From Geosiphon pyriformis uo1 (lineage: Eukaryota > Fungi > Glomeromycota), in assembly GCA_016748015.1 (NCBI GenBank), contig JAAOMT010000009.1, positions 700,459 to 764,458 on the forward strand: 64,000 nt of DNA, in the 5' to 3' direction. Numbering within the stretch: the stretch's first letter is position 1; each line of letters begins with the position of its first letter. The notes beneath the pieces are model-generated. The model was not told where the DNA came from. It searched no databases and saw only the letters and a program-made list of their open reading frames with translations. A program made the position numbers and the translations under genes. Of the stretch, positions 13,189 through 56,041 are shown piece after piece.

Positions 13189-15770
13189 TTAGATTTGTCT
13201 TATGTGTAACAAATTGTTAACATTTTTTTTATAATGTATAGTATAATTAAATAGTAATAATTTTTTTTTTTGCATGACAATTGTCTTCAAATTTTTGTTT
13301 TTGGATTAATGTTAATTCTTTGTGATTAATGTATACATCAAATTTTTGACTCAAGTATTCATTTTATTTTATAACAACCCAATAGATAGTTAAATGTTTT
13401 AATGTTAAAGTTTTATAGTTTTTTTTAATTAGACTTAGACTTTAGCTAAAATATGCTACTAAATGTTTTTATTTATCAGATTTTTTTGTGATAGCACTGC
13501 TTTCAATGCTTAACTTAATACATCAATAGTAATAATAAATGGCTTGCTATAATCTAAATAGATTAATATTAGAACTTGAATAAGCTTTTTTTATAATATA
13601 TTAAAAGCTTTTTGTTGGTTTTCTGTTCATTTATATATAATGTGTTTTGCTTGGAGCTGGTAGAATGATTAAGCCAGTTTGGAGAAGTTTTAAATAAAGC
13701 AGCAATAGTATTTAGCAAATTTCAAAAATATTCTTAGTTCTGTTTAGTTTATTGATACTAAAAAGTTCTTAACTATTTTAATTTTGTCTGGATCTGTTTT
13801 GATGCCATTTTTGTTTATGATATATTCAAAACTTAAGTTCAGTTTTTTTAAAAAAGCATTTGATAACATTTAATTTTAATTTAGCTCTTTTTAATTTTTC
13901 AAATACTTGTTTAAGATAATAGAGATAATTATTAAATGTTTTAAAAAACATATTGGTATTGTTTAAGTAAACTACTACTGATTTTCATAGTAATTCCTTG
14001 TAGACAATTTCTATTAGTTGTTAAAAGATAACTGGAGCATTGATTAAGCCAAAAAACATAATATTGAATTCAAAGTTTTCTTCTTTGGTGATAAATGCTG
14101 TCTTTTTTTTGTCAGCTAAATTTATGACTACTTGTCAATAATTATTATTTAAGTTCAATGTTAAAAACCATTTTTTTTCTCTAAAAACATTAAATAATTC
14201 TTGGATCTGTAAAGTTGGATAGCTGTTTTTACAAGTAATACTGTTGAGTTTTCTGTAATCTACACAAAAATAAATCTTTTCATTCTTTTTTTGAATAAGT
14301 ACTATTAGTAATGACCATAAACTTATTAATAATTGAATTAATCTATTGTCTAATATATGGTTGATTTCTTGATAAATAATCTTATAACTAGTAGGTAGTA
14401 CTTAGTATGCTATTTGTTTGATTGAAATGGCATCTCCAGTTTTAATCTGGTGCTAAATAATATTAGTTTTGTCAAATTTATTTTCACTTGCAAAGATTTT
14501 GGTAAAATTGTTAAGTAATAACTTGAATTGTATATGTTGAAGTGAATTTAAGTTTTCTAAATTCATTTGCTCCAACTATTCTGGTTGTAACAAATAGTAT
14601 TCTTTATGTTTATAAATTGTTTATAATATAAGTTTACATATTTACAAAGTTGTAAAAAATCTGAAATGGTAATTAGTGTTTGGTTCTTAACTTTAGTATT
14701 TAAGTATCTAATAGTAATTTTGCTTAGTATTTCAATTGGATTTTCAATTGTATTGTGTATTAGAATTTTAATGTGTTTATAATTTTTGGCAAATATATAA
14801 AATTAGAGATAACAATCTCTTTTGATTTACAAATAATAGGTTTTATTTCAAAAATTTGGGGTTAATTTTTTATTTTCTTCTTTATAATTAATATATACTG
14901 GTTATATAATAAAATAGAAATTGATTAATTAATAAAAATAATTTCTTTCTAATTAATGGTTTTTTTTTCTATCATATTAATTGGTATTTTTATTCTACTC
15001 ATAAATCCAAATTTTTTTATCTTTTTTGTTGTGATTTTTAACTCTTTTTTTGTTTCTACTAATACTAACTAAGCTATTTTTACCAAAAGTAGAAATATTG
15101 TCTGTGTTATCTTTTTATTTGGTTTAATAATATATGTTTTTTCTAATTTATTTTGTAGTATTGTAATAATATTTTCTATATATTCTGTATTAATTATTTC
15201 TCTTCTAATATTATTTTTGCTAAACTAGATTTAAACACTAATTAGACTATTGTTGTTGCTGAAATTTCTAGTTTTATTTTCAAATTTATGCTGATACATA
15301 AATAAAGTTTCAATCTGATAGCAGTTTTTTTTGAATATCTAAAATTAAATCTTGTATTAATATTATGTACATATTTTGGCATGATACCTTTATTATTATT
15401 ACTGAACCATTTAAGTTTCTGCTTCTTTAAAAAATCTAAGAATGCAATATATTGTTTAAAATTGTAATTAGAATTTAAATTGTTATTATTGTAGTTGCTA
15501 TTGTGAATAATATTGGAATTATTGTTGTTATTATTATCAAAATCTAAATTAAAATTAATTTTTAATTCTAATTCCAAAGTACATTTACTGATTGGTTTTT
15601 TCTTTAGGAATTGAATAAATCATGCATGCTAATGAATTGTAAATAAGGTTACAATTATCACAAAATTTAAAATTGCTGGAAATTAGGCAATATTTATAGA
15701 GTTGAGTATTTAATTGTTCTAAATATTGCTCTTATTCTTCTTAAGTATAATATTAATGCTAATTTTCTGT
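13189..15770 (-). pseudogene. pol remnant of element A: end of Cys-rich domain, dUTPase (~14995-15425), RT, RNase H
   Basis: dUTPase KGIMPKYVH..INLKIKLEI..KKFGFMS; RT FCVDYRKLNSITCK; RNase H ending LLHIRQI*. Confidence 0.82.
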
Positions 15771-19914: not shown

Positions 19915-22900
19915 TTATTGGATGGTAAGTCTAGAAAGAGCATTGGCATTTTGATGATTTGCTCCTTTGTGGTATTGAATATCATAGTCAAATTCATTCA
20001 AGTAAAGTATTCAGCAAGTTATTCATTTGTGTTCCAGCTTTTTTTTATTGCACAGCCAAACCAAGGCTTGATAATCTGTTACTATTAGGAATTTCACACC
20101 AAAAAGATATTAATCCTAGTAACTAGTAGCCCAAACTACTGCTAAATATTCTTGTTTAGTAACTAAATAGTTTTTTTCTGCTAGTGTAAAGGATCTATTG
20201 GCATATGCTATAACATGTTCTTTGCCATTTTCATTTTTCTGTAAAAGGACAGCACCAAGTCCATAGCCAGATACATCAGTGTAGAAAATAAAAGATTGGT
20301 CCAGATCAAGCTGCTTAAAAATTGGTTTAATAATAAGTTTTTTCTTCAGAATTTCAAAAGCTTTTTGTTGATGAGTGTTCTAGTGATAATTAACATTTTT
20401 CTTGAGTAGCTGATTAAGAGAAAAAGCAATTTTGAAGAAATCCTTGATAAATTTGCAATAGTAAAAAGCCAAACCAAGGAAAAAGTGTAGTTTAGAAACA
20501 TTCATTGATTGTTTAATGTTTTGAACTTTTTCAAATTTAGCTGGATTAGAGAAGATTCCATCTTTTGTGATAAAATGACCAAGGAACTAAATGGATTGGT
20601 GTCCAAAGAAAAATTTGATTGAGTTGATCTTAAGGCCAGCATTTTTGAGCAGATCAAAAACCTTCTGCAAATGTTCAAGGTGTTTATCCCAGATTTTTGA
20701 GTAGATTATTATGTTGTCTAAGTAGACCAGAACAAAGTTTTTTTTTACTGATTCAAATACTTTGTCCATTAGACATTAAAAGATAGAAGGGGCATTGGTA
20801 AGACCAAAAGACATGATTGTGAATTCATAGGTGCCATACTTGGTAATAAAGACAGTTTTTTTTCTGCTTTTTGGATCTATCTCTACTTGCCAAAATCTAT
20901 CAGTTAAATCAATGATTGAAAAGAAAGCAGCACCATTGAATTTATCTAGCATTGCATCAATTTTGAAAAGTAGGTACATGTTTCATATAGTGATGACATT
21001 TAATTGGCAGTAATCAACACAGAAATGTAGAGTTCCACTTTTCTTGGATATTACTACAACTGGGAAACCCCATTGACTCTTGGTTTCTTGTATGAATTCA
21101 AAATTTTTCATTCGGTTTATCTCTTTCTTAATGAACTTATTATTGTGTTAATTGGATTAATAAAACTTCAAATAGATGGAACAAGTTTCTTTTGTGGTGA
21201 TAATGTGTTGTATTAAATAGGTTCATCCAGAGGTATCACCTTCTTTTAAGATAACTGGGCCATTTCTAGCCAATAGATTTTTAATGTCCACTTTTCTTTT
21301 TTTAGGAGAAGGTTTTTTTTGTTCTACAATTAGTGATTGAATTTCAGGTGGTTCATTCTCAAAGGACTTCTGTATTTCTTTTAGTTTTTCTTTGGGTATC
21401 AAACTAATTGGCTCCCAATCTTTGTAATAGATCAGACAGGACTTGCATTTATCACTAGGAGAATACAAAGGTTTATTGCACCAACATCTGGCACAAGAAC
21501 TATATTACTAATAGCTGTATTTGGCTTTCTTGCCAGACTTTTTATCAAAAGTTTTACTTAGAATATCATAGTAAAACCAGCAGATTAGCTTGCCATTTAC
21601 CATGATTCTTTTTTTGTTAGCTTTAATATTGTCCAGTGACTTGCCATTACTGGTAAAGATAATATAGGCAAGTTTAGTAGTTTCTTTTTGTTTTTTTTGA
21701 TCTTCTTTATCATCACTCTCATTATCATCTGATTCATCTGATTGTTCATCTTCTTGATTCTGCTTGGGTACTGAAGAGATTGTTCAATGACAGCACTTAA
21801 CCACAATGGACTTTTTACCATATCTAATGGTTAGCTTACAAAGTTCATAATTAAGTAGCACTTTGGCTTTCTTGAGTCACTTATTGCCAACAATTATGGT
21901 GTACTCTTTTGCTTCAGATACTTCCATGTTAGTTTCAATACTAATATCATTGATGTAGACAGGAATAGCTTTGGCTATACTCAGGTCTTTCTTTTTGTCA
22001 CCATGTACATTGGTTATTGGTCAAGTGGAAAACTCATCAATTTTTCTGCCAATTGCTTCAAAAAAGTGTTTGGCAATTACACTAACAGATAATCTACTGT
22101 CTAAGATCAAATTAATAAAGTAACCAGCCACTTGGGCTTTGCAAATCAGAGGAATAACATTGTTGTTGTCAGTGAGTTCAGCTTGACAAGAACATTTATT
22201 GGTTTTTGGTGTCTTCTTTTTTAGAATCAATAACTTGTGAAAATTTTTTCTGAACTGTGGATGAGTTATTAGTTGGCCAAATTTAATGTGTGCTAGAGTT
22301 TCTATAAGATCTTTAACAACAGAATAAAGACCAGATTTTTGTATTATCTCTGGGAGTTCTAACTTTGGAGGATTTTTAAAAACTAGCCTTTGATGGCTTA
22401 TTGTTATCAGCAGTTAATGTGGATGCTTTTTTTGGATCTAGAACAAAATCAACTTTGGCTTTCTTCTTCTTTTTTGTTGATTCAGAAGTGTTGATTGCTA
22501 GTTTATCCATGTTATGATCATTATTAGTTAGGTTAAAAGTGTAAAAGAAGTTTTCTTTTAGTTGGCTTGTACTCTCATCCTTTGGAGATGTACCTACCAG
22601 TTTAAAGATTAATAAACAGTAACTTCAACTAGGAGATTTTTTTTAAAGAAATTGATGTTGGCATGATTGGGTTTTTAATTAGGAACATTGTTGTTAATAG
22701 TTCTGTTGGTTTGATTGTTATTGTTTCTAGGAACTGAAAAAGGCAATGGAGAATTGTTGTAATCTCTGGAAAAATGTCCAGTTAATCCACAATGATAGCA
22801 CACAAGTGGGTTACAATTTTGTTGTCTTTGATAAGAGAGTTGCTAGAGTTGATTAAAACATGGTTTAAATCTAGGTCTTTGTAGTTGCTGGTTGTCTTTA

Positions 22901-27637: not shown

Positions 27638-28291
27638 CTAAGCACTATTTGTGATGTCAAGATAGTAGTCCAATATAATTGAAGTAATTTGGTCTGAAAA
27701 TTGTTGAAATTTCAGTTTTGTGAGCTTTCCAATGTATTGAATCTTCATTAGATAGAGTATTGGATTTTGTAGGACGTTTTCACAAGTGTTGAATAAATTA
27801 TAGAGTCTAAATGCTGCTCTAAGTTTGTAGTGAGTGTTTGTTGGTCCAGCTGCTGTCTTGAATTCATTGTGGATTTGTTTTTGTATGACTTCAGAAGTAA
27901 GATTTGTTGTTTCAAGTTCCAGTTTTTGTTCATAAAGTGTTTTTCTAATATGAAAATATTTATAGATAAGGGTATGTTCATTGTTTTGTTCATTAAGAAG
28001 TAGTGGAAGTTTTTGTTGGATTGTGACATTGGATAAAATGTTAATAGGAGCAATTAAAAGATTTTTTTTCAGTGCTTGCTTCAAAAGTTCTGGTAATTGA
28101 TTTTTAGAGTGACCTCTTGTTTTTTTTCTATAAGAGTGATAATTTTGAGAATTGTTTACTACTAATGTTGTGGTTTCTTTCTGAGTGTAATTAATTTAAC
28201 TTTTATTAATCGTTATGGATAAGTCAAGAAGTGTTTTTAAGGCTAACATTAATTTTTGGAATATTTGTTGAATATTTCGGGGAATAATCAT
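27638..28291 (-). pseudogene. ORF3 of C (unknown function, ~217 aa, one internal stop)
   Basis: MIIPRNIQQIFQKLMLALK...KLRAAFRLYNLFNTCENVLQNP..IGKLTKLKFQQF; similar along its length to D ORF3. Confidence 0.8.
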
Positions 28292-29873: not shown

Positions 29874-32778
29874 TTAATCTTGTCTCATTCTTAAGAGGCT
29901 ATCAATATTGGTGTGTAGTTTTTCTGGTTTGTGGTATACAATATATTTGTAGTCTGCTAGAAAGTCATTCTATCAAGACTGTTTGGCACTTTGTTTGGTT
30001 TTCTTTTTATTGAGTTATTTAAAACTAATATTGTTAGTTATAATGTTAAATTCTTTTTCATTCTTCAGGTATTGTTGAAAATGTTTAATAGTCCAAATAA
30101 CTGCAGCAGCTTCTAATTTAGTTGAGTTATATTTGAGTTCTGTTGGTTTGAGTGTCCTACTGATATAGACAATGACTTGTTCTTGGCCATTTTTATCTAA
30201 TTGTGATAAGATGGCACCAAAAGCTATGTGTGATGTATTGGTGGTTAGTTGGAACCATTTGTTGAAGTCTGAGTAAACAAGAACTGAAGCTGTTGTTAAT
30301 TTTGTTTTGAAAGTTTTAAAAGCTTTTTGTTGTTTTTCAGTCTATTGATATGGCATGTTTTTGTTGATAAGATAATTAAGTGGTTTGGCAATTTTCAAGA
30401 ATTCTTTTATGAATTTTCAATAGTAAGAGGCTAATTCTACAAATCCTCATAGCTTGATAGTATTTTTGGAAGTTTGAAAGTTTTTGACAACACTGATTGT
30501 TCCTGAATTTGGTTTGACTCCATTTTTATTAACTATGTGTCCAAGAAAGATTAAGCTTGTTTTTCTAAAATGACATTTTTCAATGTTTAACTTCAATTCT
30601 GTTTTCCATAATCATTGAAAAAATTTTTGCAAATAGATAAGATGGGCTTTAAAGCTTGGTGAGTATATATTAGTGTCATCAAGATAGACAACTACTGATT
30701 GCTATAAAAGTCCTTCATATATAATATCCATAAGTTATTAGAATGTTGCTGGTGTATTACAAAGTCCAAAAGACATAAAATTGAACTCATAGTTTCCTTT
30801 TTGAGTGGTAAATGCTGTTTTAGGTTGATCTTTTGGGTTCATTTCGACTTGCCAGTATTCACTTTCCAAGTCTAAAGTTGAGAAAAACTTGGCTTTGCCT
30901 AAAGCATCTAGCATGTCATCAATTCTTGAAAGAGGATAGGCATCTCTAATTGTTATACTGTTTAGTTGGTAATAGTCAACACAAAATCTGATTTTTCTAT
31001 TTTTCTTTTTGATAAGAATTACTGGTAAGACCCATAGACTTTTTGATAGTTGAATCAATTCATTATTGAGCATTCTTTGAACTTCTTCCCTAATGAATTG
31101 GTGGCTAGCAGGTGGCACTTGATAAGCTTGTTAACATTTTGGTGAAGCATCTTCTGTATGGATCTAATGTTAAACAATATTAGTTTTTCTAAGATTATTG
31201 TTGTCTTTTGCAAATATGTTAGCGAATTCAGCTATTAGCTGTTTCAATTGTCTTTGTTGTTAAGATTCTAAGAGACCTATGTTGATTCAAAAGAGTTTTT
31301 CTTCTAAAAAGTAGTAGTTTTCAGTAGTAAGGATAATGTTTAGATTTGGAAGTAAGGTATGTCCTATAATTTCGATGAAATTAGAAACAATTTGAGGGTT
31401 TTTATCATGGAAGATATTGCTATGTATGATTCCAATTTCTAATTTATTCAATAAGACAATAGAGTAATTATTGGAGTTGTAGAATGTAACTTGAAATTTT
31501 TTCATTCTTTTGAGAATATAAACATTTGGGATTGAGATTTTATGTTTTAAACAGATTTGTTCATTGGATTCAAAGATTTGTTGGGTAGTGGTGAGTTCTG
31601 AGCAAGTGTAAATTTCGTAATATTCTCCAAAAGGTAAAATAATAATTGGTTGGGGAAGTTGAAGAATCTGGTGCAATTTATTTTGTGTATTAAGAGCTAT
31701 GTTTACTGGAACTGTAAATCGTTCAGTTGAACTAAAACCTTGAGTTTCTTTTTCACTTTTTTCCAATTGTTCTCTGTTTTTAACTGATTGTAAACCCGAA
31801 ATGTTGATTAAGGGTAGGTAAATTGCTTAAGCAATCTTTTCAGCATGTTTAATTCTGAATGGTTTTTTAGTTTCATTTTGTAGTATGACAGTGATGTCTC
31901 CAGTATATCCTACATCTATAACTCTTCCTCTGATGTTAATTCCTTTGCTTGCCAATAATGATTGGAAAGCAATTTGTACTATTGCTCCTAATGGTATTTC
32001 AAAAACAATTCTAAGGTTGATTTTGGTTAAGAATTTTGGTTAAAGAACCAAAGTGTTTTTGCCAGAATATCTGAGGTTATATCTTGTATCAATTTCATAG
32101 ACTTTTTTTGGTTTTATTCTTTGTTTATTGTTGTCAAAGTATTTGAGTTGTATAGTAGGCTGGTTTTTAGTAAGATAAATTGGTGTTGTTATAATTTCTT
32201 CTTTTGTTTCTAGTTTCCCAAATTCAATTTTCTTCTGGTCATTTTTACTGGACAGAGAAATACTAAGAGCATAGCATTCTGAATACCATTTGTCATTACA
32301 AAACATGATGTATTCTTTACACAATTAAATATTTATTTGCTCTAATTTTTGAATTTAAGCTTCTTGGATTGGGTATGTGTGGCTTGCAATTTGGTAGTAT
32401 GTCTCTATTTCATCTTTATAGTTGAATTCAGCTAATTTTATTGTGTATTCAATGTACTCAGCTTTCTTTATTTGTTAGACATTTTCTTGTGTGGCTCCAT
32501 TAATTAAAGCTATTGCTAAATCAAAAATCATTTCAGCATTATGAGAATAGTGGTAAAGTTTGTTAAAAGCACTATTGTATATTATATCAAAAGATGTTCT
32601 TTTTTTAACTTTTTTCGAAATTGATAAGACATATTGACAGGTTTGGTCACATACTTCCCCTCTTATTGCAACATCAATCCAGTTGCATTCTTCTGGTAGT
32701 ATATCTCCACATGTAAGACAAGAAGTGTTGTCCTATTTTCCACTTCTTTTGAAATATTCAAATCATTTTTTATGGCAT
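29874..32778 (-). pseudogene. C pol 3' part: Cys-rich domain, dUTPase (~31726-32150), dUTPase-like domain, RT, RNase H
   Basis: GINIRGRVIDVGYTGDITVILQN, EKIA*, QGFSST; RT IRFCVDYYQLN..YLDD; ends LLRMRQD*. Confidence 0.9.
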
Positions 32779-33653
32779 TGTTATGGGATGGTTTTCTTGT
32801 TATATTTAATTGCTGATATCCCGTTTTAATTGCAATCAGTCTTTCGTGAATTCCTCAATTCTATTTGTGTGATAATGTCACTGTTATACTGAAGACTTTC
32901 TTTTAATATTGCAATGTAAGTTATTCTTCAATTCCTGATTGTTGTGTGTGTTTATGTACTTCTTCTCAGAGGCTAAACTGAAATCTACCCACTGTCTGGG
33001 GTCTTTTCTGAGGCTATCCTTGCAATTGCCTGATGTGTTTTTCTAATCTAGAAACACAGAATGTTAATGGTCTTTAGTGCTTTTTCTAATTCTTACAATA
33101 AAGCTTTTATCAATTAGTAACAATGTGAATAATCTTGATCAAGGATTATTCTTCCAAGAGATTCAGTTGATGAATGATAGTTTCATTTAATAAATAATAC
33201 AAGTAAGTTTCTTAATACTTTGGGTTGTGATAATTCAGTTTTAAATATTTTTTTTTATTTCTTTTTGATTTAAAGATTTCTTGGGATATTTAATTTGAAA
33301 GTATGATTTAAAGTGGAGTTTGTTGAATAAAATTGGATCTATTGCTTGATAAGTTATGATTTTTATTACTTGATTGTTTTTTTCCCAATATTAAAACTAC
33401 TATATATATACATGTTTGTAGTTCTACGAGAAAACACATTGTAATACTTTTTTTTTGATATTTCAATCTGGTATTTGCTGCTATCACCAGTTGGTGTTGA
33501 CTGCTATTGTGAACTGGTGCTTGCCACTATTGCGAGATGGTGTTTGCTACTATGTTAATTATTATTTTTCTAAGATTATTACTGTGCTATATTATGATTG
33601 AATAGTTTGTATTATTTTTATGATTCTTTTTGCTAAATTCTTAAACCATAACA
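32779..33653 (-). repeat. 3' LTR of D
   Basis: Direct repeat of 41623-42497; four ~23-bp U3 units at ~33468-33555. Confidence 0.96.
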
Positions 33654-33668
33654 ATATCTCCTCTTTTC
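33654..33668 (-). promoter_or_regulatory. Polypurine tract of D
   Basis: rc gaaaagaggagatat abuts the LTR. Confidence 0.8.
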
Positions 33669-34335
33669 AAAATTGAGCTCCGTCAAAATTGAAGTTAATT
33701 TCTTCATTAAATTCTAAATTACTATAGTGGTTCAATACTGTGTTATTAATTTGTTGTTGTAATTCTTAAAATTGCGAATTGGTAAGTCATCCAATACTGT
33801 TAATTGTTATTATGTTCATGGTTGGGTTCAACAATAATTTGTAACAGTTTTCAAATGCTTTGAAAATTCTGTAAACTGTTTTTGAATGGAATGTAGTGTT
33901 GGTTTTTCCAATGAAAGGTTCTAATAGTTGGATAGTTGTTTTGTCAAACACTCTAGTTGAGTCTTTTGAGTATAATGTTTGTATGTTTAAGTGTTTTCCT
34001 AGTTGATAATAACAGTAATTAATTGGAAATTTCGTTTTCAAGTTGCTAAATGTGTCTGGTGTTAATTCACTTATTTCTATTTCTTCCATTATTAATGTAT
34101 TGCCCAATGCTATCTCTAATTTTTTAATAACTTTGCTAATAAATTTGTTGTTATATTTGGCAATATTATATGGTTCGAAATTATGTTCTTTTCTTGTTTT
34201 TGGATTTTCTATTGTTCTTTTTATGTATGTTATCTTGGAGCTATTAACTGTGATTTCCAGATCGGATTTTAATTGTTGTAAGCTTTCAACTAATTGTTGA
34301 GTTATATTGTTGATGTTTTCTAGAATAAGTATCAT
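33667..34335 (-). pseudogene. ORF3 of D (unknown function, ~222 aa, two late stops)
   Basis: ORF 33787-34335 continues in frame as LTNSQF*ELQQQINNTVLNHY; homologous to C, A and E ORF3. Confidence 0.82.
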
Positions 34336-34419
34336 TGTTTTAATTTTGACTGCTATTTTGGAATCTTTTGCATGCGTTTTTATGGTTGTTAAATCATTTT
34401 TGCCGTGATCTAAGATTAA

Positions 34420-35799
34420 TTATCTTTTTGAATAATGTTCAATTAAAACTATTGGTTCTAAATCTTGTGGAATTTGTTCTGGTAGAATTAAAGGTAATTG
34501 TGTTCCAATTCTGGGTGTTTTTGTTGTTATTACTGGTTTACTGTAATAGAATTTCAGCTGGTTACCATGTGCTGCTTTTCTTAATATTTTATCATTTAGT
34601 CTTAGCTTGTATGCTCTATTTCCAAGTATTTTGTGAATATAAAATGGTCTATCCCACTTGTGATCAAATTTTCCATTCCACTGTTTTTCCATTTTTGTAT
34701 GATGCAACAATACTTTATCTCCAATTTTGTAGTTAATTATATTATCTGGTAACTGGTTATCATGTCTCACTTTTTGTTGTTCTTGTGATTGTTCAATATT
34801 TTGTGCTGCTTTTCTTCTTTTGTTTTCTAAAGTTCCCATTAATTTGTATGTTCTTCTAAGTAGTGTTTCCTAGAATGTTGCTTCCATGATAGTGTCACTT
34901 AGATAAGTTGGGATAGTAAGTTCAACTGGTAATGTGGCTTTTCTTTCATAAACTAGTTCAAACAGTGTGAATTGTATAGTATCTTGTTTTACTGTTCTAT
35001 ATGCTAGTAGTACTGTTGGTATGAACAAATCCCATTCTTTTTCATGTTCATTACTAATTTTTGCCAGTGATTCACATAATGTGCAATTAAATCTTTCAAC
35101 TAATTCATTTGTTTGAGGGTGGTATGGTGATGACAGTGGTCGCTTGATTTCAAATTTTTGGCTAAGTTCTTTTAAGGTGCTGTTTACAAAGTGTGTGCCT
35201 TGATCTGATAGCAATTCTTGTGGACATCTATGTTGGCAAATTAAGTCTTCATGTATGAATTGAGCTACGGAAATAGCATCAGCTGTTTTAATAGCTCTAG
35301 CTTCTGGCCATTTGGTGAGATAGTCTATGACTACTGCAATATAATGGTTGTTTCTTGTTGTTATTGATAAGGATCCAACTAAATCAATTCCAATTCTGTC
35401 AAATGGCTGTCCCATTTTTATTGGTCTTAATAATTCCATTGTTTTTGCTCCTCCTCTTCATTGGCATAGGTCACAATTTCTTATGTATTGGATTATGTCT
35501 GAACTCATTTTTGGCCAATAGTAACGGCTAGTTGCACATTGAATGGTTGCTGTTTTTCCAAAGTGGCCTGAATGAATATTTAAGTGCATGTTAAATAAGA
35601 TAGTTTCTTTTTTATCTGTAGTTATAATTCTTAATGGATTATCTGGATTTTGTCAATTCCAGTAATAAAGTATGTAATTTTGGATGAAATAGTGTTTTGC
35701 TAATTTTTGGAGCTTAATTAGCTCTTTTACTGGCATTTCTTTGTCTATTTGTAGTGTTTCCAAGTATTGGCTGAGGTTTTTGTAAAGGTGGTTGTTCAT
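34420..35799 (-). pseudogene. Integrase ORF of D (zinc-binding domain, rve core, SH3-like tail; no chromodomain)
   Basis: ATG 35799 MNNHLYKNLSQY; HSGH..CDLC; IGID..LLSDQGTHF..PYHPQTNELVERFN; in a different frame from RT-RNase H. Confidence 0.92.
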
Positions 35800-35828
35800 T
35801 GTTGTTGTGGTGGGTGGGTTGGTGATTT

Positions 35829-38800
35829 TTATGTGTATCTTATTCTTGACAAACAGTTAGCATTAGCATTTTTGGTATCTTCTTTGTATTTGATAATATA
35901 ATTGTATGGTGCTAACATTTGTGACCATCTGGCATATTTTCTTTTTAATGCTTTCTTGTTATTTAACCAGATCAGACCTCTATAATCTGTTATAATATTA
36001 AAGAGTTGGTACCGTAAATATGTGTCAAAGTAAACACAACTCCAGACTACTGCTAAGCATTCAAGTTCATATGCTGCATAGTTTTGTTCTGCCATACTGA
36101 GACTTCTGCTGGCATAAGCGATTACACGTTCTCTTCTATTATCATCTTTTTGTGACAGAATGGCTCCAAGTCCAGTTCCAGAGGCATCTGTGACCAAAAT
36201 GAATTTCTTGTTGAAATTCAGATAGATTATTATTGGTAATTTAATGAGCTTTCATCTAAGGTACTCAAAAGCTTTTTGTTGTGTTTCAGTTTATTCAAAC
36301 TTTACATTTTTAGATAGTAAGTAATTAAGGGGTTTGGTGATGTTTGAAAAGTTTTCTACAAAGTGGTGGTAGTAAGATGCAAGTCTTAAAAAGCTTCTAA
36401 CTTCTGAAATGTTTCAAGGTACTGGAAAATTTTTCACTTTGTCTATTTTTGATGGATCTGGTTTTATTCCATTTTTTCCAACTACATGTCTTAAAAATGC
36501 TAGCTCATTTTTCCCAAAGAAACATTTTTTTAGATTTAGTTTAAGTCCAGCATGTCTCAATCTCTCAAAAACTTGTTGTAAATGTTGGAGATGATCCGTG
36601 AATTTTGACGAGAAAACATTTGTATTATCCAAGTAGACAACAACGGATTGCTACAGGATTCTGAAGTAAATTACGTCCATTAGTCTTTGAAATGTCACGG
36701 GAGTGTTTGTTAATCCAAATGGCATTACATTGAACTCATAATTGCCATTTTGTGTTGTGAATGCTGTTTTATGCCTGTCCTTTGGGTCCATTTCTACTTG
36801 TCAGTACCCACTGGTCAAGTTCAGTATAGAAAACCATTTTGCTCCTCCAAAAACGTCGAAGATTTTTTCAATTAACGGTATTGGGTATGAGTCTTTGGTT
36901 GTTTTGCTGTTTAGTTTGCGATAGTTGATGCAAAATCTAATTTTTCTGTTCTTTTTCCTTACTAAAACAACTGGTGAGGACCATGGGCTCATTGATGATT
37001 GTATTATTCCTTTTTCCAACATGCTTTGGATTTCTTCTCTGATAAAATTATGTTTCATTAGTGAGACATGGTAAGCATGTTGTTTTTTAGGTCTGGCATC
37101 TCCAGTGGGGATTTGGTGTTGAACCAAGTTGGTTCTTTCAAATTCGCTATTTTATGAAAATATATCAGAGTATTTTAAAATTAATGCTTTTAATTGTTGC
37201 TTTTGGTCAGGATCCATTGTTCCAATGTTTAATTTGGCCAATTCTTCTGGCGTAAATTGATAGCATTCTAACAGTTGTTGCCAATTTATTGAAGTGAGTT
37301 CACAGTAGAGGGTGATTTCTGGGAAATTTAGAATTTCTTGTGGTGTTGACGCATTTTCTAGCTCTGTTCTGAGGTATCCAATAATGGTATCTTCCAGAAT
37401 GTAGACGGGTTCTTCTGTGGTGTTTGCGATAGGAATTTTTATCCATTGAGCTTTATCAGCTGGAATAAAAAGGTTAGTAAGTCCTATAAGAAACTGTTGG
37501 CAAGTTTTTGGGTAAGGCTCAAATATTAGGTCTTTTTTTTTAATTGTCCTTTTTATTCTTATTTCTGATTTTCCATATGGTAGGAGTGTGATGGACTGCT
37601 TATTTTTAATTACTTTACCTTTTTCCTCTATTGTTTCAGCGAAATTTGCTTCAATTCTTTTTCTTGTCAATCCGAAACCAAAAGTTCTTCTTGTTGTTTG
37701 TGACAATTCTTCATGATTTTCCACTGGCATAAATTTCCCAATTTTTACCAATGGTAGAAAAATTGCTTATGCAATTTTTTCCTTAGATTCAATGGTATAA
37801 GGCTTTTCTGAATTGTTCTGTAGCAAAACCATCAAATTTCCAGTGTATCTGGAGTCAATTACTCCTCCTTGAATGCTTATTTTTTTTTTCATGAGACTTG
37901 ATCGTGACGCTATTTGAACCATTATTCCTGGCAGAATTTCAACTGCTATTTTTAGGTCGATTTTGGTGATGCTTCTGAGTGGTAACATTGTGGATTGGTT
38001 TTCTGGATAACATAGATCGAATTCGGCATCGGTTGGATGGGCTCTTTCAGGTATTATTCCTAAGTGCCCATTGTCGAAGTATCGGATGTCGGTCACCTGT
38101 TCTAGGTCAGTATAGGCTACAAATTTTTCTGACTCAGGACCGTCAGGTGAGTCTTGTTGATTTATTAATTGATTTTGAGACTGCTGATTCTCAATTTCCA
38201 TTTTTTTTTCTAAGCCCCTTTCATCTTGACACTCTTCACAGCACTGATTTTGGCATGGGATGAGACAGTTTTCGCAGAGATAAGTGTTGATTTGGGTGAA
38301 GTATTGTTCTTGCTCTTGTCGAGTGGGGCATAGTTGTTGGTAGTAGTCCTGGAATTCGTCCACTGGATCAAACATGTTGTAGCTGGTGACTTCGTCAGCT
38401 ACTTCGGCTGACTTTTTCCAATGTCGTATTTCTTCAGCAGTTCCTTCTCTTATTTTGGCTTGTGCAGTGTTGTACAACTTGTCCTTATTGTGTGAGTAGT
38501 GCTGTAGTCTTTTTAATGCTCTGTTGAATGCTGCTTCGAATAGCATTCTTCCTCTTACCCAGTCACAGATGAGGATTGTGTATTGGCAAGTTGTGTCACA
38601 CATTCTTCCTCTGTCTGATATGTCATTCCAGTCGCACCCTCTTGGTAACGGTTCTCCACAAGCAAGGCACAGTTCCTCGTCCCATTTTCCATGTCTTTCT
38701 GGGTAACTGTATTTTTTTTTGTTACAATGGTTACAATAGTAATGGGTGGAGTTTCTTGGGTCTTTGTTTGGTGCACTGCACGCAGTCATAGACGAGAGTT

Positions 38801-41540
38801 TTTTCTTGCAAACTGAGCATTCTAGCTTTGGTCTGCGTCACTGGTGGTTTCTTTGTGAACTTACCTGGTTTCATTCGGATCTTTCTTCGCTGGTCCACAT
38901 TGGTACGGCTGGTAGTCTTGTTCTTTGGTCATCAGCCCAAGAAAACTGATAGGTTTCGATGGCTGGTAGTGCTAGATTTTTCTCAAATTTGAAGGTAGGT
39001 TTTTGGTTGGCACTGGGTTTTTGGAAGTAGTCACAGATGGCTGGAATTTTGGCCTGGTGGCTATTATAATTGATCAGAAGCTCTTGAGTAGTCCAGTCTA
39101 GAGTGGCATTGGCTTTTGTTAGCCAGTCATTCCCTACTAACGCTTAATATTGTGTAGCATCCATTACTAATATTTTTGTAGGTATTACTATGCCATTAAT
39201 TTCGAAAGGGAATGAGTCGATTTCACCATGAGACAGCTTTGTACTTCCATTGGCTGTTATGATTTGGGATGTCGCAGCACAATCAACTTTGAAACCCAGT
39301 TGGTTTACTAGTTGAAGCGTTATGATGCTTCCAGCGGATCTGCTGTCTAAGATAAGTTTGATTGGAGTATTGTTTACAGTGGCTTCCGTATACATAGCAG
39401 TGATTGGGCATTTTTCGTCCAATGCTGCTCCACTAAACATAGCCTCATTTTCCTCTAATTCAAAAGAAAAAATAGCTGCAAGGCTGCTATCTTCAGTGGC
39501 AACTGTTGGTGGTATTGTCTGGTTCAATTTGTTGGAAGAATTCTTGGTTTTGTTTATGTTTCTACTATCATTATTTCTGATGATTAGATTTTCTGGTATA
39601 TTAAGGTAAGTTTGTTGATAATTTTGGTAGTTTGAATTGGTTTGCTGATTGGTTTTGGCACAGTTTGGATTCCTCTGGACCAACGCGTTCTGGTTCTACA
39701 TGGGCTGATTTCAGGCCTTGGGATGCCAATTTGGGTTGGCTATCATGGGCTGTTGCTGGTAAGCTCCTTGATTTTAATACGTGGTGGAATATTGGTGTGG
39801 TATTGGCGTGTACTGGTTTCTAAGCATTTGGGGTGGTGTGTAGTAATTATTTTCATGTGCTTCTTGCATCATTCGCATTCGACATTGACTAATCAAATGT
39901 CCTATGCATTTGCAAAAATGGCAGGTGCGCGTTTTTGTTCTGAATTTCTGGCGTGATGAGCGATTATTTTGACTGTCACTAACTTCCTGGCTGCATCTTT
40001 GGAGTGGTTGGTATGTATTTCTTCTCGGATCCAGGATGAGGTAACTTTCTATTTTCTTAGAGAATTCCTCCCCTAATTGTATTACTCTTTTCTCTAATGT
40101 TTCTGTCTTATTTTCCTTCATTATCATGTTAACTATTTAACTATGGTTAGCTTTTTTCTCAGCTGATTCAAGGGCTCTGGCAAGTGTAATGGCTTCTAGT
40201 AAGGAATTAGGGTGGGCAGGGCGTACTCTTTCTAAAATGCTGCTTTTTAATTCTCTAATAAACTGATTTAAAACCTAAGGATCAGTGTAGTATCCTTGTT
40301 TAATCACTTCAATCTGATGGCAAATTCGATTGAATCGAGCAAGGTATTGGGTAACAGTTTCACTGGTATTTTGCTTGATAGTATTGAATTCATTTTGTAG
40401 TTAGATTATGGCGTTTGGGTCGCTAAAATACTCCAGGAGTGCATTTTTAAATTTGGTGAAGCTCGTGGATTTTGTTTCCAGGCTTTGATACCACAAGTCG
40501 GCTGTGCCTTTCAGGAAGAAAGGTAATATTTGAATTGCTCTTTGGTTGTTCCAGTTATTTGTCTGGATGGCTTTTTGTGCTTCTCTGAGCCATGTGTGCA
40601 TGTCCATTTCTTCTTTCTCTCCTGAGAAATCTGTTAGTCTTGTAATGTATGGTGTGGTCATTTCATTGCCATTTTTTGCTGGTGGGCTTATTGGTCTAAG
40701 AGGAGGTGAGATGATATTTCTTTAAGCATTCCTAAAGATGGCTTCCCTTATATCCAGTTCTTTTTCTTGATCATGAGTTTTTTGGTTTCTGGATTGGCTG
40801 CTTGTTTCAGTGACTGGTCTTGTGATTGTTTTTTCGCTGGTCTTTTTTTCAGATTCCGATTCAGACTCCTCTTCACAGTTTTCAAACCCCATTCTAAATT
40901 TTGGCTGAAAAAGAGGGTTTTGGAATAGTGATAAATATCCTCCTGTAATTGGTATGTCTCCCCAGTTATGTTGTTTAATTTTATCAGTATAATTAGAAGT
41001 TCTTGGCATTTGTGGAGTTGATGTTAATGATGATGCAGCTTCTAATAGAATTTGTATCTTATTTTCTGGTGAAAAATGGTATGATTTATCTTCTGGTGAA
41101 TAAATACGTTGTTTCTTTATTGATTAAGTGACAGTTTTCTTTGGTGTTTGAGCTAGTGTTCCTAGTTTTTGCTGGTTACTTTTCCGATTAGTTTTTAAAT
41201 TTTTTTTGGTTTTGTTGATGCATTTTTTAGTGTTTCCTGTGGATATTGGAAAATTTTCGTTGGCGTATTGCTCAATTTCTTGATGGATTTTGACAATAGT
41301 TGCGGCTATTACTGTTACTTCTTTTGTAGTGTATTGTGATAATTCTCTATACAATCCAAGTTTTGCATCATGTGGTTCTTCTTCCTTTCCTATATGATAA
41401 TTTATTCTGGCGTTGATATAATAAGTGAGGGCAGATTCTGCTGGACAACACCCTTCTGATAATCCAAGATTACTTTGATTTTGTGTGTAAATAGCACAGC
41501 AGAATTCAAGAACAGTAAGATTAGGGGTTTTTGTCATCAC
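35829..41540 (-). pseudogene. Single-frame gag-protease-Cys domain-dUTPase-RT-RNase H polyprotein of D
   Basis: ORF pieces starting at 41540, 41009, 40661, 40127, 39683, 38789, 37751, 37127, 36632 and 36197 share one frame. Knuckle CHFCKCIGHLISQC, protease LILDSRSAGS, RT YLDN, RNase H TDASGTGLGAIL. Confidence 0.93.
37665..38087 (-). pseudogene. dut: dUTPase domain within D pol
   Basis: All five trimeric dUTPase motifs recognisable: DAEFDL, IASRSS, GGVIDSRYTG, KIA*(Q), RRTFGFGLT. Confidence 0.92.
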
Positions 41541-41604
41541 TTTTGTCTCTTCCTTTTTAGCAATGAATTATTGCTAATTATTATTTCTTTTTTGATTTTC
41601 TTTT

Positions 41605-41620
41605 CTCATAGGGTTCACCA
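41605..41620 (-). promoter_or_regulatory. Primer-binding site of D (possibly tRNA-Trp)
   Basis: tt-TGGTGAACCCTATGAG next to the 5' LTR; the tRNA identity is a tentative recollection of Trp 3' ends. Confidence 0.7.
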
Positions 41621-41622
41621 AA

Positions 41623-42497
41623 TGTTACGGGATGGTTTTCTTGTTATATTTAATTGCTGATATCCCATTTTAATTACAATCAGTCTTTCGTGAGTTCCTC
41701 AATTCTATTTGTGTGATAATATTACTGTTATACTGAAGGCTTTCTTTTAATGTTGTGATATAAGTTATTTTTCAATTCCTGATTGTTGTGTGTGTTTATG
41801 TACTCCTTCTCAGAGGCTAAACTGAAATCTACCCACTGTCTGGGGTCTTTTCTGAGGCTATCCTTGCAATTGCCTGATGTGTTTCTCTAATCTAGAAACA
41901 CAGAATGTTAATGGTCTTTAGCGCTTTTTCTAATTCTTACAATAAAGCTTTTATCAATTAGTAACAACGTGAATAATCTTGATCAAGGATTATTCTTCCA
42001 AAAGATTCAGTTGATGAATGATAGTTTCATTCAATAAATAATACAAGTAAGTTTCTTAATACTCTGGGTTGTGATAATTCAGTTTTAAATATTCTTTTTT
42101 ATTTCTTTTTAATTTAAAGATTTCTTGGGATATTTAATTTGAAAGTATGATTTAAAGTGGAGTTTGTTGAATAAAATTGGATCTATTGCTTGATAAGTTA
42201 TGATTTTTATTACTTGATTGTTTTTTTCCTAATATTAAAACTACTGTATATATACATGTTTGTAGTTCTACGAGAAAACACATTGTAATATTTTCTTTTT
42301 GATATTTCAACCTGGTGTTTGCTGCTATCACCAGTTGGTGTTGGCTGCTATTGTAAACTGGTGCTTGCCACTATTACAAGATGGTGTTTGCTACTATGTT
42401 AATCATTACCTTTCTAAGATTATTACTGCGCTATATTATGATTGAATAGTTTGTATTATTTTTATGATTCTTTTTGCTAAATTCTTAAACCATAACA
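41623..42497 (-). repeat. 5' LTR of D
   Basis: tgttacgg...cataaca; direct repeat of 32779-33653. Confidence 0.96.
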
Positions 42498-42501
42498 GCA
42501 T

Positions 42502-45206
42502 GCTTTGCAAAAGTAGCAGGTGCAAGTTTCATATTCCTTTTCTGGAGAAATACATGCTCCCATTAATGAAAGTTTCTTGTTGCAATCTTTGTATTTGAGT
42601 AGAATATAAGATGGTTGTTTCCATGGTTCTAATGTGAAATATCTAACTACATTCTATCCTCTGGTTTCTTCAAAAATTTTTTGTTCTGTTTCTTTAGCCC
42701 AATTGGATGGTAATCCAAAAGCCATAAAAATTTCAGTGACTGGTAGTTCTCTCTTCTCTTCAAATTCGAATACTGAGGCTTTTTCAGATTTTTTATTAAA
42801 GATATCACAAGTGGCAGGTACTCTGGTGTATTGTCCTTGATATAAAATCTTCAATTTCTGAGTTTCTTAATCTAAATTTGCATTGGTCTTAAGAAGCTAA
42901 TCATTTCTGATAAGAGCTTAATATTGGGGTGTATTTATAACTAGAACTTTGACTGGAATGGTGATTCCATCAATGGTGAATGGGAAATTGTCAATTTCTC
43001 CTACTGGTATTTTTTTCATACCATCTGCTATAACAATTACAGTTTGGACTGGTCTGTTAACAGTTCTTTAAAGCTGTTGCATTAACTGATAGGTAATAAT
43101 ACTTCCAGCTAAAAAACTGTCTAAGATTAACTGAATTGGTTTTTCTTCTACTTTAGTTTCTGTATACATAGCTGTAATTGCTTTTTGTTCATTAACTACT
43201 GTATTGCTAAGCAAGAATGATGATTCATTTGCTTTAAATTCGAATAGAAATATATCTGAAAGGTTGGTATTTTGGGCAATTTAGATTGGTAGAATAGTAT
43301 TGTTGGAAGGGTTTGATCTTGGTGCTACAACTTCATTTCCAGAAAGTGCAGTTTGTTGAAAATTCGATCTTTTAGGCATTGTGAGATAATTGGGTTAAGT
43401 GTAATAGTGATTGGGTTTTTGCTGATCAGAATTTCGGAGAACTAACTGGTTGTTTGGATTGATTCTGTTGTTGTTATTCTGAAATTGATTTTAAGATGTG
43501 AATTGGTTTTGTTGAACTAATCTTCGAACAGGTACTTGGTATTATTGTGTAGGTGGCTGTTGATACTGTTGAATTGGTTGAGATTGTTGATATTGCTGCT
43601 GTAGAACAGGCTGATAGTAATTGTTCTGCTGTTGGAATCTTAAAAAATAATAAGCTGGTGGTAGAGGCTGGTAATAAGATTGCTGTGTTGAAGAGTAACA
43701 CTAATTACTCCTGTTTTGTTGGTCTCTTTGTAGCTTTCTGCAATCTTGTTTCCAATGTTCTGAAATCTCACAATAATAACAACTTTGATTTTAACTGTTT
43801 GATGATAATAAGTAGTTGGTTTGGTTTTATTATTATGGTGGCTAATATCTTTGTAATTGTTGCTGTTGTTGCTGGTTAATGAAATAGTTCTCAACTTTCT
43901 TTGTAAGTTGGTTAATTTTTTCTTTAGCTGCTGAGCTGGTTTCTCCAATAGCAAGATTCACAAGTTTGGTATGGTTTGCTTCTTCTATTGCCATTTCATA
44001 GTTCTTTGCATGTCTAATAGCTATTGCTAAGTTTTCTGGAACATGTGGGCGAACTTTCTTAATTAACTTGTCTTTCAATCCTGCTATAAACTGAACCAAA
44101 ATCTGGGCATTGGAATAGTATTCATTGGTTTCCAATTGTCGAATTTGTCAAAGAAATTTGTTGAATCTTCCAAAATAGGTCATAACAGTTTCTGATGTTT
44201 CTTGTTTGATATTGTGAAAGCAATTGCAGAGAGTAATAAAGGTGTTGTTGTTAGTGAATTGTTGTAAGAAAGCATTTTTGAATGCTTGCCAGTTTTCAAA
44301 TAGTTCTTCTAAGTTTTCAAACCATTTTTCTGCAGTTTTTTGGAGAAAGTATGAGATTGTTTTAAGCATTTTTGCCGCATTCCAACTATTTGCATCTCTT
44401 GCTTTTTGAACTTTGTCAAGCCATTCTTGAAGGCTAGTATTATTATCTTTACCAGTAAATTCTGGAATCTTTGCAATGTAAGCAGTTGTCATTTTTTCTT
44501 CATTTTCTGTAATTTTTTCTGGTTCTGATTCAGTTTTTTCACTTTCTAAGTTTTCTGAATAATTTCTTTCATTTTCCTGTAAGTAATCAAGAAGATTGGT
44601 GCTGGTTAATATTGGTTCTTGCTGTTGAGTAGGATTTTTAGGTGACTAAAAATTTTTTGGTCTAGAGAAACAGTTAAGTAGTGAATTTGGTGTTTGTGGT
44701 TGAGCAAGTGAAATTGGAAATAATGTAATAAAAAGTGGTAATTTGACACTGGTTTTTTGTTCAGGTGTTTATAAGTGTTTGGTAGTTGTCTTTGGTGTTT
44801 TTAGAATATTTGGGGTGGTACTTAAGTGTTGTTTTAGTTTTTGTTTGCCTTTGTTGTTTGTTTTTGTTTTTGATTCAAAGTCAATAGAGTATTTAAACTG
44901 TACTGGATATGTTTTTTTACAATACTTGATAATGTTAAAATTAAGTTCTTGGAAGTAGGTGGCAAGTGTTTTACTGTTAAGGTCTTTAGTTCCCAATTGT
45001 AAATAGTGCACTAAATTATTGTAGAAGTTGCTTCTAACTTCTGAAATGTTGTAATTTCTAAGAAGATAATTGTTGATGCAGTTTTCAATATACTGGTAAA
45101 GTGTCCTCTTAACAATTTCAATTCCATCTGGAATGTTAAATTTTTGCTTGCAATAAGTGTAAATTGACTGATAATACTCTAGAGTTGTTGTGTCTGGTGT
45201 GGTCAC
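42502..45206 (-). pseudogene. C gag-protease and start of the Cys-rich domain
   Basis: Pieces at 45206, 44492, 44135 and 42854 share a frame, and stay in frame with 32324, 31766 and 31118 once D plus its TSD is removed. Capsid IPEFTGKD..QEWLDK; protease LILDS. Confidence 0.9.
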
Positions 45207-49409: not shown

Positions 49410-51463
49410 ATATAACAACAAACTGTTATTAGTCATTAATGAATTTAAAGTTAAAAACAAAGTTTTTTTATATAAAACTAAAGCTAAAAATAATAAAATA
49501 AAAAATTTAATTATAAATAAAATATATTATTTTATATATATGAAATTTTAAAAAATAGATTATATAAATTAAAACTTAATAATAAAGTTTTGAAAAAATT
49601 GCACATAATAATAAATTTAAGTACTATTATTCCAAAACTAATCTTAAATACTTAATTCTACAACTTAATATACAATTTATTTTAGTTAATTCTAAAAATA
49701 TTTTTCAAAACTTAAAACCAATAATTGTTATTAAACAATTTTTAAATCTAAATATTTAATAATTAAATTATTTTATTTTACTTTTATATTAGTAGAAATA
49801 ATTTTATAAAAATAATTAAAAATTATACAAAAAAGTAAAACAAAAATAATTTTATTTTTTTATATTTTCATTAGTTATTATGATTATTTACTAAAATATT
49901 TAATATTTATTTCAAAAATTAATGTTAATCTTAAAAACACTATCTAAATTATTTATAATTATTACTAAAAAACATATTAATTATATTTAGATAAAATTTG
50001 TTACAATTTTAATATAAATTTACAAAATTATTTTTCTTATAAAAGAAACACAAAAAATTATTCTGGAATTTACTTACCAAAATTTTTAAAACAAGTTTAG
50101 AAAAAAATTTAATATTTATTTTTATTAATATTTTACTAAATACTACAATTCAACAAAAATTTTAATAATGTCTTAATAAACAAAACAACAAATATTTTTT
50201 AATTTATAAATATTTTTATATTAGAAAAACACTTTACAAAAGAAAACTAGAGTTTAAAACAGCAAATTTTATATTTAAAGCTATTCAAAACCAATTTTAC
50301 AATAAATTCAAAACAACAACTAAACCAATAAACACTTATTACAAACCTAGAACAGCTTTTAAACTTTATAATCTATTTTATACTTGTAAAAATGTTCTAT
50401 AAAATCTAATTTTACAAATTTTAAAGATTTAATATATTGAAAAGCTTATAGAATTAAAATTTTAATAATTTTCAGACCAAATTTCTTCAATAATTCTGAA
50501 CTATTATTTAGAAATTACAGACAATATTTAAACTTTAATAGAGCTTAGTTTTAAAAAAAAAATTATATTATTAGCCAAAATTTAAAATATTAATTAATAT
50601 ATATTATTATTTCAATTTATTACTTTTTATTTTATTAATTATTTGAATTATTATTTAATTAATAATTTAATTTATACAGAATACAAATATAACCAAATTA
50701 TAATGATCAGATTATATAATAAACTAAATTATATAACATTAAAAATTTGCTAAAATATTTAATAATTCAATAAAATAATTAACAATTTACTAAAATAATT
50801 TATAGTTTATAGAAATAACTTGTAATTTAATAAAATATTAGGAAAAAAATGTTAAATCATAGAATAGTACTATAATAAATTATATAAAAAAAGAACTTTT
50901 TATTTCAAAAAAATATATTTTAATTAGAATTACTTAAATTAAACTAGAGATATATTTTTTATAAATTAATTTAAATAAAAACTTATATTAAAAAACATAT
51001 ATTTTTTAATTAATATTATTTTAAAATTGATTAATTACTAATTTTTGTAATAGTTAATAATTTTCAAATCTGAATTTAAAACAACTTCTTTAAAACATTC
51101 TTTTATTTTTTTTCTTTAATTTATATTTTTATATTTTTTTATATTATTAAGTAGCCTATAATTAAGATTTTTTATAAAAAAATTAACTTTTACAACAAAA
51201 TAACTATACAAATTTTTGAAAAGCTTACAAACAAAATTTTTTTGTAAAAAAGTTGATTTTTACTACAAAATAACTACACAAATAATTGATATAGAATTGT
51301 TTATTTTATTATAAATTTAATAATATACATAATTTAAAGTATAGAAAAATACTTTAGAAAAAAAATTAGCTTATTAAAAATTTATCAACTTTTATTAACA
51401 GCAGAATTAACAACAAAATAATATTAAAACATCAAGAAAAAAGTAGAAAAATTTTTAATAACA
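49410..51463 (+). mobile_element. Gypsy E 3' part: integrase tail, ORF3 (~49880-50530), decayed PPT, 3' LTR (~50567-51463)
   Basis: Colinear with the reverse complement of C 28790-26630, with most G/C replaced by A/T. Confidence 0.8.
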
Positions 51464-54096: not shown

Positions 54097-56041
54097 ATGG
54101 ATCTGGTAGACGCTTCTGCTGGTGGTTCTGGTGCTAATTTGGCTGAAGTGGGAACCTGGTCTAGCAAAAAAAAAAGCTTGTGTAGATAGTGTGTACTCTT
54201 GCAATCTATTATTTAAGAAGCTGAAGATGCCTGTGATTAGTGATGTGGTTAATTTGTCTACTGGCCCTTTGAGCTTAGTAGATATTGGTAATGTTGGTTT
54301 TAAGCCTGTGGTGTCCTGGAAAAGCAAAGTTGGCAGCATTTCTAGCAGTGTGAGCAGTCTCTTGGATGTTGAAAATATGGAGAACACAGTTGCTGAAAAA
54401 ACTGGCTATGCTGAATCTAGTAGAGACAATAATATGGATAAAACTATGCTGAGAAAGACTTGTACACAGATGTATGTACTAGACAACTCACCAAAGCAGC
54501 CTTTATTTGACCATATGAGTAATGATAATACTGAGTTGGTGCTTCCAGCACCTAAATTTGTTAGATTCAATTGGCTTCTATCTGCCAAATCACATGTTTT
54601 GGAGAAACATAGCTTCGAACCAGTTAAATCATTCACTTTGGATGTTAAGTTGTCTGCTATGTCTAGAAAAACAAATAGTAATAAGTTAATTACAATCAAA
54701 AAAAATTTTTATTAAATTGATGGTTTTGAGGGGGTTTCCACTCCCTCAAAATTTTTTGGAATCATTAGATTCTTCTTTACTTCTGAATTGAGTCTAAAAA
54801 AGACTAAGGAATTGACAATTCATAAGAAAATTGTGGTAAATGATAATGTTAGACAGATAAACAAATGCACCAATTGAGAAATAATTATCAAAGAAATTCC
54901 AGTTGATCTTCCCAAATCAGCAATAGAGTTAGTTTTTTTCAAGTTTGGTGAGGTGGTTTCTGTTAAGTTGCAATTGATCAGGCTTTGGCAAAAGGCCTTA
55001 ATGGAGTTTAAGTCAGCAGATGTTGCCAGTTTGGTTGCATCTAAATGGTCTGTTTTTATGGGAAAAGATTTGGTGTGTGTGGTTCTGGCTGTAGATAATA
55101 AAGTATCATGAGTATTAAGAGACCAGCATTGGGCTTTGCTCTACACTTTTCCTATTAGTACTATTGCTCATAATTTGTCTAGTTTGTTGGAGTCATATGG
55201 TGAGAAGACTTGTTTTATTGGTCACAATCCGAGTTCATATGTTTATGACAAATGTGTAGTAGTTTGTTTTGAGAATAAGACATCCAGATTGGCTGCTTTT
55301 GATTCTGTTCTAGTCTTTAAAGATGTAAATTTGCACTGGGCTGGTTTCTTTTTGGCTGGTTGTGCCAAGTATAAACAATTTGGTCATATCTCTGATGTGT
55401 GTTCAATGGGTGGAAATTCTGGAGTTCATATCAAATGGTTGGTGACTAATTGGGATCAGGTTCATTTGGCAGGCATTTATAAAAAGAAGCAGGCTCTTAT
55501 TGTCTATCTGGTCTTGTTTGGTAAGAAAACTTGGGCCCAAATTGCTGGCAGCTTTTCTTCTAGTGTAGTTTTTTTGGTTGTTTTTGGTGCTAAGCCTAGT
55601 CCAAGTGCAAATTCTACTCCATTGACTCCCAATTCTCTTGTTGTCTCTGGTCTAAATAATTGTTTGGCATTTTTGGAACATTTTTTGGGGTTTTTGGCTA
55701 ACCAAGTCTCTGGTATTTTGAGAAAATTGAGTTTTGTCAATTTGATGCTATTGGCATCTTTCTTTATAGCTTTTCTTTTTGTTGTGTCTGCATCCTCAGC
55801 TATGGATGCAAGTTCAGATATGATTTTGGATAGTGTGTTGGTGCTCTCTGTCTCTCTTTTTCTTGCTGTTGGTAATGTTGTGCTTAGTTTCAGTTCTAAT
55901 AGCTCCAAAGTTTTAACCAACAAAGTGGGTGGTTTGGAGTCTAAGTTGGCATCTTTGGAGACTTTAATTGGATTAGTTTTGGCTAGATTGGATCATTTGT
56001 GCTTTGGCTTGGGTTTTCCACTGCCTCCTTTATCCCAATGA
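54097..56041 (+). pseudogene. LINE ORF1 (RRM-like domains, CCHC knuckle, coiled coil)
   Basis: EIIIKEIPVDLPKSAIELVFFKFGEVVSVKLQL; CAKYKQFGHISDVC; KVGGLESKLASLETLI. Confidence 0.85.

Follow-up and report, generated by a model that had tools for sequence, protein, structure and literature searches.

Several retroelements are known to carry a dUTPase between protease and reverse transcriptase (RT), among them the Gypsy element PosPlaTy3-5 of Postia placenta (PMC2864245), the bdelloid elements Juno, Vesta and TelKA (PMC5408684) and the planarian element Burro (PMC6431247). Juno has an extra zinc knuckle after the dUTPase (PMC5408684), and PHD fingers are accessory domains of transposons (PMC8557442), so that there is a precedent for accessory zinc fingers; here and below, statements on published work refer to the available parts of each paper. 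An expansion of long terminal repeat (LTR) elements has been reported in Geosiphonaceae and Ambisporaceae (PMC11952901). Here we describe a Cys-rich domain between protease and dUTPase in the Pol polyprotein of element D, a Ty3/Gypsy retrotransposon of Geosiphon pyriformis uo1. It lies in a stretch of 64,000 nucleotides ("the window"; assembly GCA_016748015.1, contig JAAOMT010000009.1, positions 700,459 to 764,458), which is a nest of decayed LTR retrotransposons, several of them related (A, B, C and D). Coordinates are those of the window, on the minus strand unless marked otherwise. Judged by the comparisons below, the domain is real, selected, uncatalogued in the libraries searched and narrow in range.

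The Cys-rich domain and its conservation

The domain of D is about 203 residues long (38229..38837). All its motifs fall in a single stop-free frame (38837-37767), with CSVC at residues 7–10 (38819), CNHC at 35–38, CLAC at 57–60 and CDTTC at 80–84. There are 18 Cys, at residues 7, 10, 20, 35, 38, 57, 60, 68, 80, 84, 91, 170, 188, 191, 195, 199, 200 and 203. The initial annotation had noted these motifs and a helical part between protease and dUTPase, and both are read there; its extent of about 210 residues at 38200..38830 has the right location but is slightly off, the domain being shorter and starting a few codons above 38830. Among 6342 read-through segments of 205 residues from all six frames, only three contain at least four CxxC motifs, and all three are at the domain site. 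This density is unique to the site, and the Cys pattern is therefore not a product of chance.

Three zinc sites are predicted. Site 1 (38724..38819) has the form C7-x2-C10...C35-x2-C38 and is followed by a helix. Site 2 (38586..38669) is C57-x2-C60...C80-x3-C84, a putative pairing, and includes the conserved GKWD, W70 and D72. It is followed by a predicted helical bundle and acidic helices (38280..38585), modelled with confidence for residues 81–130, and by site 3 (38229..38276), C188-x2-C191-x3-C195-x4-C200-x2-C203, of which the five Cys are common to four families. The predicted fold thus has two zinc fingers ahead of a helical bundle and a third one behind it; zinc would be bound by C7/10/35/38, by C57/60/80/84 and by four of C188/191/195/200/203. 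In all three family majorities described below, fingers 1 and 2 are neutral, the helices have a net charge of -7 to -10 and finger 3 has -3 to -5.

Of 152 proteins fetched, 131 covered the domain well enough to be aligned with the window copy. Together with that copy they form three families of 89, 33 and 10 rows, corresponding to the types of C, D and A, which are 28–34% identical to each other; the family A majority is based on 10 gapped gene models. Compared three ways, the family majorities have identities of 36% and 42% in fingers 1 and 2, 44% in finger 3 and 28% in the helices, against 42% in the protease, 37% in the dUTPase and 19% and 3% in the flanking linkers. By this measure domain and dUTPase are conserved to about the same degree, and the linkers fall below both. 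Cys are kept preferentially: 14 of the 18 are found in all three families, against 57 of the 186 other residues, and Cys199 is confined to family D. The 14 shared columns hold 1256 Cys in 1426 residues, and 81 Tyr, which is consistent with decay by transitions. The domains of C and D are 40% identical over 200 codons. Their nonsynonymous and synonymous divergences (dN 0.60 and dS 1.9, against 0.56 and 1.33 for the dUTPase) give ratios that are indicative only, because synonymous sites are near saturation.

The copies in the window are decayed. As originally proposed, D is inserted into the domain of C; the insertion lies within the CKAC motif, has a 4-bp target duplication and splits the domain into a first part (42498..42620, 33 bits) and the rest (32193..32777, 291 bits). 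CKAC, CLTC and CDQTC are present in C as had been reported, but this copy has lost several Cys of the first and last fingers, and it takes the comparison across whole families to show the conservation clearly. In element A the end of the domain is still present (15588..15761, 27 bits), again as first described.

A better copy is P0298, an ENA record with an uninterrupted frame of 1064 residues containing protease, domain, dUTPase and RT. Its domain represents a fourth family, 41–48% identical to the others. It retains 13 core Cys, while C20, H/C32 and H116 are all absent together; this pattern defines the core set of Cys, and favours tandem sites. The 13 core Cys fit three zinc sites around a helical bundle. 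As an uninterrupted copy, P0298 offers a natural sequence for expression. Taken together, the sequence comparisons make it very probable that this is a selected zinc-binding domain, in line with the multi-zinc module first suggested, and selection would have acted throughout the history of four diverged families.

The range of the domain is narrow. Geosiphon pyriformis is the label of all 40 named matches in a first search, and of all of the best 120 of 210 matches in a profile search. A full HMMER search against 1.84 billion representatives gave 348 matches at E ≤0.001, with 150 listed and 127 of these new. Twenty of the 127, mostly the most divergent, were looked up: 19 are from G. pyriformis and one is P0298, the clearest outlier among the new listed matches. 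The domain is in none of the best 120 of 5516 RT relatives (top score 3.8 bits), of which 84 span protease to RT, and in none of the 80 metagenome loci retained, out of 302 found with the dUTPase. Among the latter, L001-L003, with a dUTPase 46–51% identical, have the protease joined directly to the dUTPase.

Placed in an RT tree with 118 of the 120 relatives, A, C and D form a group with a support of 0.84, which joins B at 0.88. When P0298 is added, on an alignment that is shorter, all five fall together at 0.90, in unresolved order, and in both trees the long branches of decayed copies may attract each other. The simplest reading is one gain of the domain between protease and dUTPase in the lineage of A, C, D and P0298.

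Candidate identities

No match to the domain was obtained in Pfam, PHROGs, NCBIfam, the PDB or fold searches. By these libraries it is not a catalogued Pol domain, in line with the initial annotation, which did not recognise it as a standard retroelement domain; neither a confident match to a known Pol domain nor poor Cys conservation was found. A profile of phage dUTPase, phrog_135, ran upstream into the second half of the domain in P0055 (161-435), and not in P0049; this is probably an alignment overrun. Residues 1–45 of the structure models superpose on the KDM6 zinc domain, Ada2, the ClpX zinc-binding domain, LIM and RING halves, with root-mean-square deviations of 2.0–3.8 over about 37–47 residues. 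We take all of these to be treble-clef-type zinc fingers, in which a CxxC knuckle and a loop lead to a second CxxC where a helix begins, and the modelled resemblance to such small fingers is a loose one.

The known classes of finger were compared with the domain in turn. PHD fingers have a C4HC3 pattern with histidine as the fifth ligand, whereas here 88 of 97 copies have Cys at position 35; zf-HC5HC2H scored 10.1 bits against a cut-off of 29.1, and was seen in 3 of 56 members with a best E of 0.0019. A chromatin reader of PHD type has therefore failed the sequence tests, and so has a ubiquitin ligase of RING type. In the C3HC4 consensus of RING, 1–3 residues separate ligands 3 and 4, whereas the corresponding C20 and H/C32 are 11 residues apart, and the eight ligands are not all kept, since P0298 lacks C20 and H/C32 and family A varies at both. 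The nucleocapsid motif C-x2-C-x4-H-x4-C is not found in the domain, which is neutral to acidic; since the Gag of D has its own CCHC knuckle (39882..39923, with the same motif read directly), the domain is not a nucleocapsid substitute. Finally, His-Me finger nucleases (EndoVII/HNH) have a catalytic histidine next to a metal-binding residue, and an Asn on the helix of a fold that also has two strands. Here there is no His beside D72, and Q85 (K in P0298) stands where the Asn is expected.

Possible functions

We hypothesise, with a probability of about 0.42, that the domain is released and works by binding a protein, namely a factor of host silencing or chromatin. It would be translated as part of Gag-Pol and packaged, and then cut out by the element's protease. 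Its binding to this host partner, for which a protein of silencing or chromatin is the most plausible candidate, would help the element to replicate or integrate. In family C, motifs of F-E-[FL]-E type are found at the protease start (39 of 68) and past the protease end (53 of 79), and such conserved motifs at the protease ends, together with the divergent linkers, fit cleavage sites; the retroviral cleavage-site rule is a cut between F and P. Release by the protease, as first suggested, is thus plausible, and the case for a cut ahead of the dUTPase is less clear. The neutral-to-acidic charge makes protein binding likelier than RNA chaperoning, and the separate knuckle of Gag points the same way. 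The domain may bind a host protein or serve in counter-defence. It is a good deal more speculative that a protein with a new three-zinc fold, released from Pol, is dedicated to counter-silencing or to chromatin targeting, and that its gain helped to drive the LTR expansion of the host, an early-branching fungus of mycorrhizal type.

Several observations weigh against this hypothesis. The two structure models are of middling quality, with a predicted local distance difference test of 70.6 and a predicted template modelling score of 0.39 in one, and 69.2 and 0.57 in the other, and confidence is low at zinc site 2 (residues 41–80). Sister elements replicate without the domain, which the clade therefore does not require. 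Families differ in the motif that precedes the dUTPase, so that the domain may remain joined to the enzyme and tether or organise the trimer inside the particle, like the nucleocapsid (NC) in betaretroviral NC-dUTPase. This is the strongest of the alternatives, although still unlikely. The domain directly precedes the dUTPase in all four families with no shared motif between, and an NC-dUTPase transframe protein is known (PMC4531489), but the close dUTPase relatives L001-L003 manage without it, the linker to the dUTPase is acidic, varies greatly in length and has a conservation of 3%, and the domain is not basic like NC. A slightly less likely proposal is that the finger and helix-turn-helix-like bundle bind DNA or RNA, acting on LTR, cDNA or integration sites. 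The best matches of the helical part include DNA-binding helix-turn-helix domains, which also counts against protein binding; these matches are at background level.

The remaining alternatives concern the fingers themselves, or deny them a role. Residues 1–60 might form a RING-like cross-brace (C7, C10, C20, H/C32, C35, C38, C57, C60) in a ubiquitin ligase or adaptor. The ligands of families C and D come in the order expected of C3HC4, position 32 (77 of 81) alternates with an extra C21 (4 of 81), and there are many weak RING rows in the fold and profile searches. For the cross-brace itself, these weak rows go with low model confidence at residues 41–80. Against this, and beyond the spacing and ligand losses given above, W20 occurs in 3 of 103 anchored copies and C20 has neither partner in two, Pfam gives no RING match, and the RING rows have E >0.1 and are restricted to residues 1–48 in VIA; we consider it improbable. 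More improbable again is a degenerate His-Me (endonuclease VII-like) fold made of finger 2 and the helices, for which the motif order, in what we assume to be a resemblance, and weak HNH, NinG and EndoVII rows (E 0.14 or worse) speak. Besides the residues missing at D72 and Q85, Pfam gives no match and both models place a helix, not a hairpin, before C80, in a region of low confidence. It is just as hard to believe that the domain is junk captured not long ago, or a spacer of no selective importance: its distribution is narrow and every window copy is dead, but the Cys pattern and the dUTPase-level conservation across four families that are 28–48% identical contradict it.

Element D, its neighbours and known systems

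Element D (32779..42497) is a decayed full-length Ty3/Gypsy element inserted into element C. Its LTRs (5', 41623..42497; 3', 32779..33653) are 875 bp long and 96% identical, with TG...CA ends and a 4-bp target duplication. They differ at 35 positions, in every case by a transition, and the neighbouring bases are mixed (CA 14, CT 10, CG 7, CC 4), which points to cytosine deamination without strict context. The pol of D has 10 stops in 1183 codons, and this copy of the domain is dead. The order is gag with a CCHC knuckle, protease, Cys-rich domain, dUTPase, spacer, RT, RNase H and integrase; the paired LTRs with target duplication, and gag followed by protease, RT, RNase H and integrase, place D in Ty3/Gypsy. 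The aspartic protease (39050..39425) matches Pfam PF13650 Asp_protease_2 (E 5.5e-8), and its DSG motif is present in every family majority. The dUTPase (37660..38117; PF00692, E 1.6e-15) is in frame with the Cys-rich domain. RT and RNase H are at 35955..37139, and the integrase (34450..35780; Pfam rve, E 5.5e-11) is in a different frame. Element C has Pfam matches to Retrotrans_gag and Ty3_capsid.

The integrase is split from RT-RNase H by the change of frame in D (35780-35900) and by a stop in C (about 29880), with a Met after each, and no integrase domain is listed for most RT relatives lacking a species label; a separate integrase open reading frame (ORF) may be a trait of the clade. Sense ORFs are found 3' of the integrase in D (33787-34419, 210 residues) and C (27638-28195, 185 residues), with no Pfam match and no similarity to each other; that of C is found again at 50043-50525. 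The gag of D has an unrecognised extension of about 180 residues upstream of the capsid part (41001-41540), 63–87% identical in other family D gene models. Another repeat family, with related long ORFs, has at least three copies (54110-56041, plus strand; 4888-6441 and 52200-53300, minus strand), and the two ORFs scanned have no Pfam match.

Element B has a small zinc module between protease and RT (21358..21630), of the form C-x-C-x9-C-x2-C. A module C-x-[CH]-x(6-13)-C-x2-C is found in this slot in 28 of the best 120 RT relatives, a count that is partly circular, the profile having been built from 27 of the 28. Its layout is a hairpin, a helix, W-x-G-P, C-x-[CH]-x6-13-C-x2-C and a helix, and it is seen before the dUTPase, after it or without one (for example P0202, P0189, P0219 and L002-L005). 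A further nucleotide-sanitising cargo of the clade is NUDIX (PF00293), a precomputed domain of the RT relative P0264. In this Gypsy clade the interval from protease to RT would thus be an exchangeable cargo slot, which can hold an acidic linker, a small zinc module, a dUTPase, the Cys-rich domain or, in one relative, NUDIX.

Pol polyproteins are among the best catalogued of proteins, and a selected domain of 200 residues, unmatched in the libraries searched, is for that reason a real addition. No description of it was found in the literature searched, including the available parts of PMC2774666, PMC3248453 and 10.1101/2023.09.13.557621. Should the domain prove to act on host silencing or chromatin, it would rank among the rare counter-defence proteins that are encoded in Pol in fungi, and would offer a cause, open to testing, for the reported LTR expansion of Geosiphonaceae (PMC11952901).

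A close comparison is with the small zinc module of related fungal and soil Gypsy elements, including those of Rhizophagus clarus (P0202) and element B, which is in the same slot and the same RT clade and is also Cys-based. It has, however, about 90 residues and one site, with no detectable homology to the domain of about 203 residues (best 2.6 bits; hhalign probability 0.1%). PosPlaTy3-5, Juno, Vesta, TelKA and Burro share element class and dUTPase position with D, but the available parts of their descriptions do not mention a large multi-Cys domain between protease and dUTPase, and for Juno give just the extra knuckle. The PHD fingers of transposons are likewise zinc-finger accessories inside a retroelement ORF (PMC8557442), whereas the domain of D does not have the histidine ligand of PHD and stays under the cut-off of Pfam. 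Finally, betaretroviral NC-dUTPase resembles D in having a zinc-binding part directly before the dUTPase (PMC4531489). In the betaretroviruses Gag provides this part, the basic CCHC nucleocapsid, while in D it is a separate, non-basic, all-Cys domain that follows the protease.
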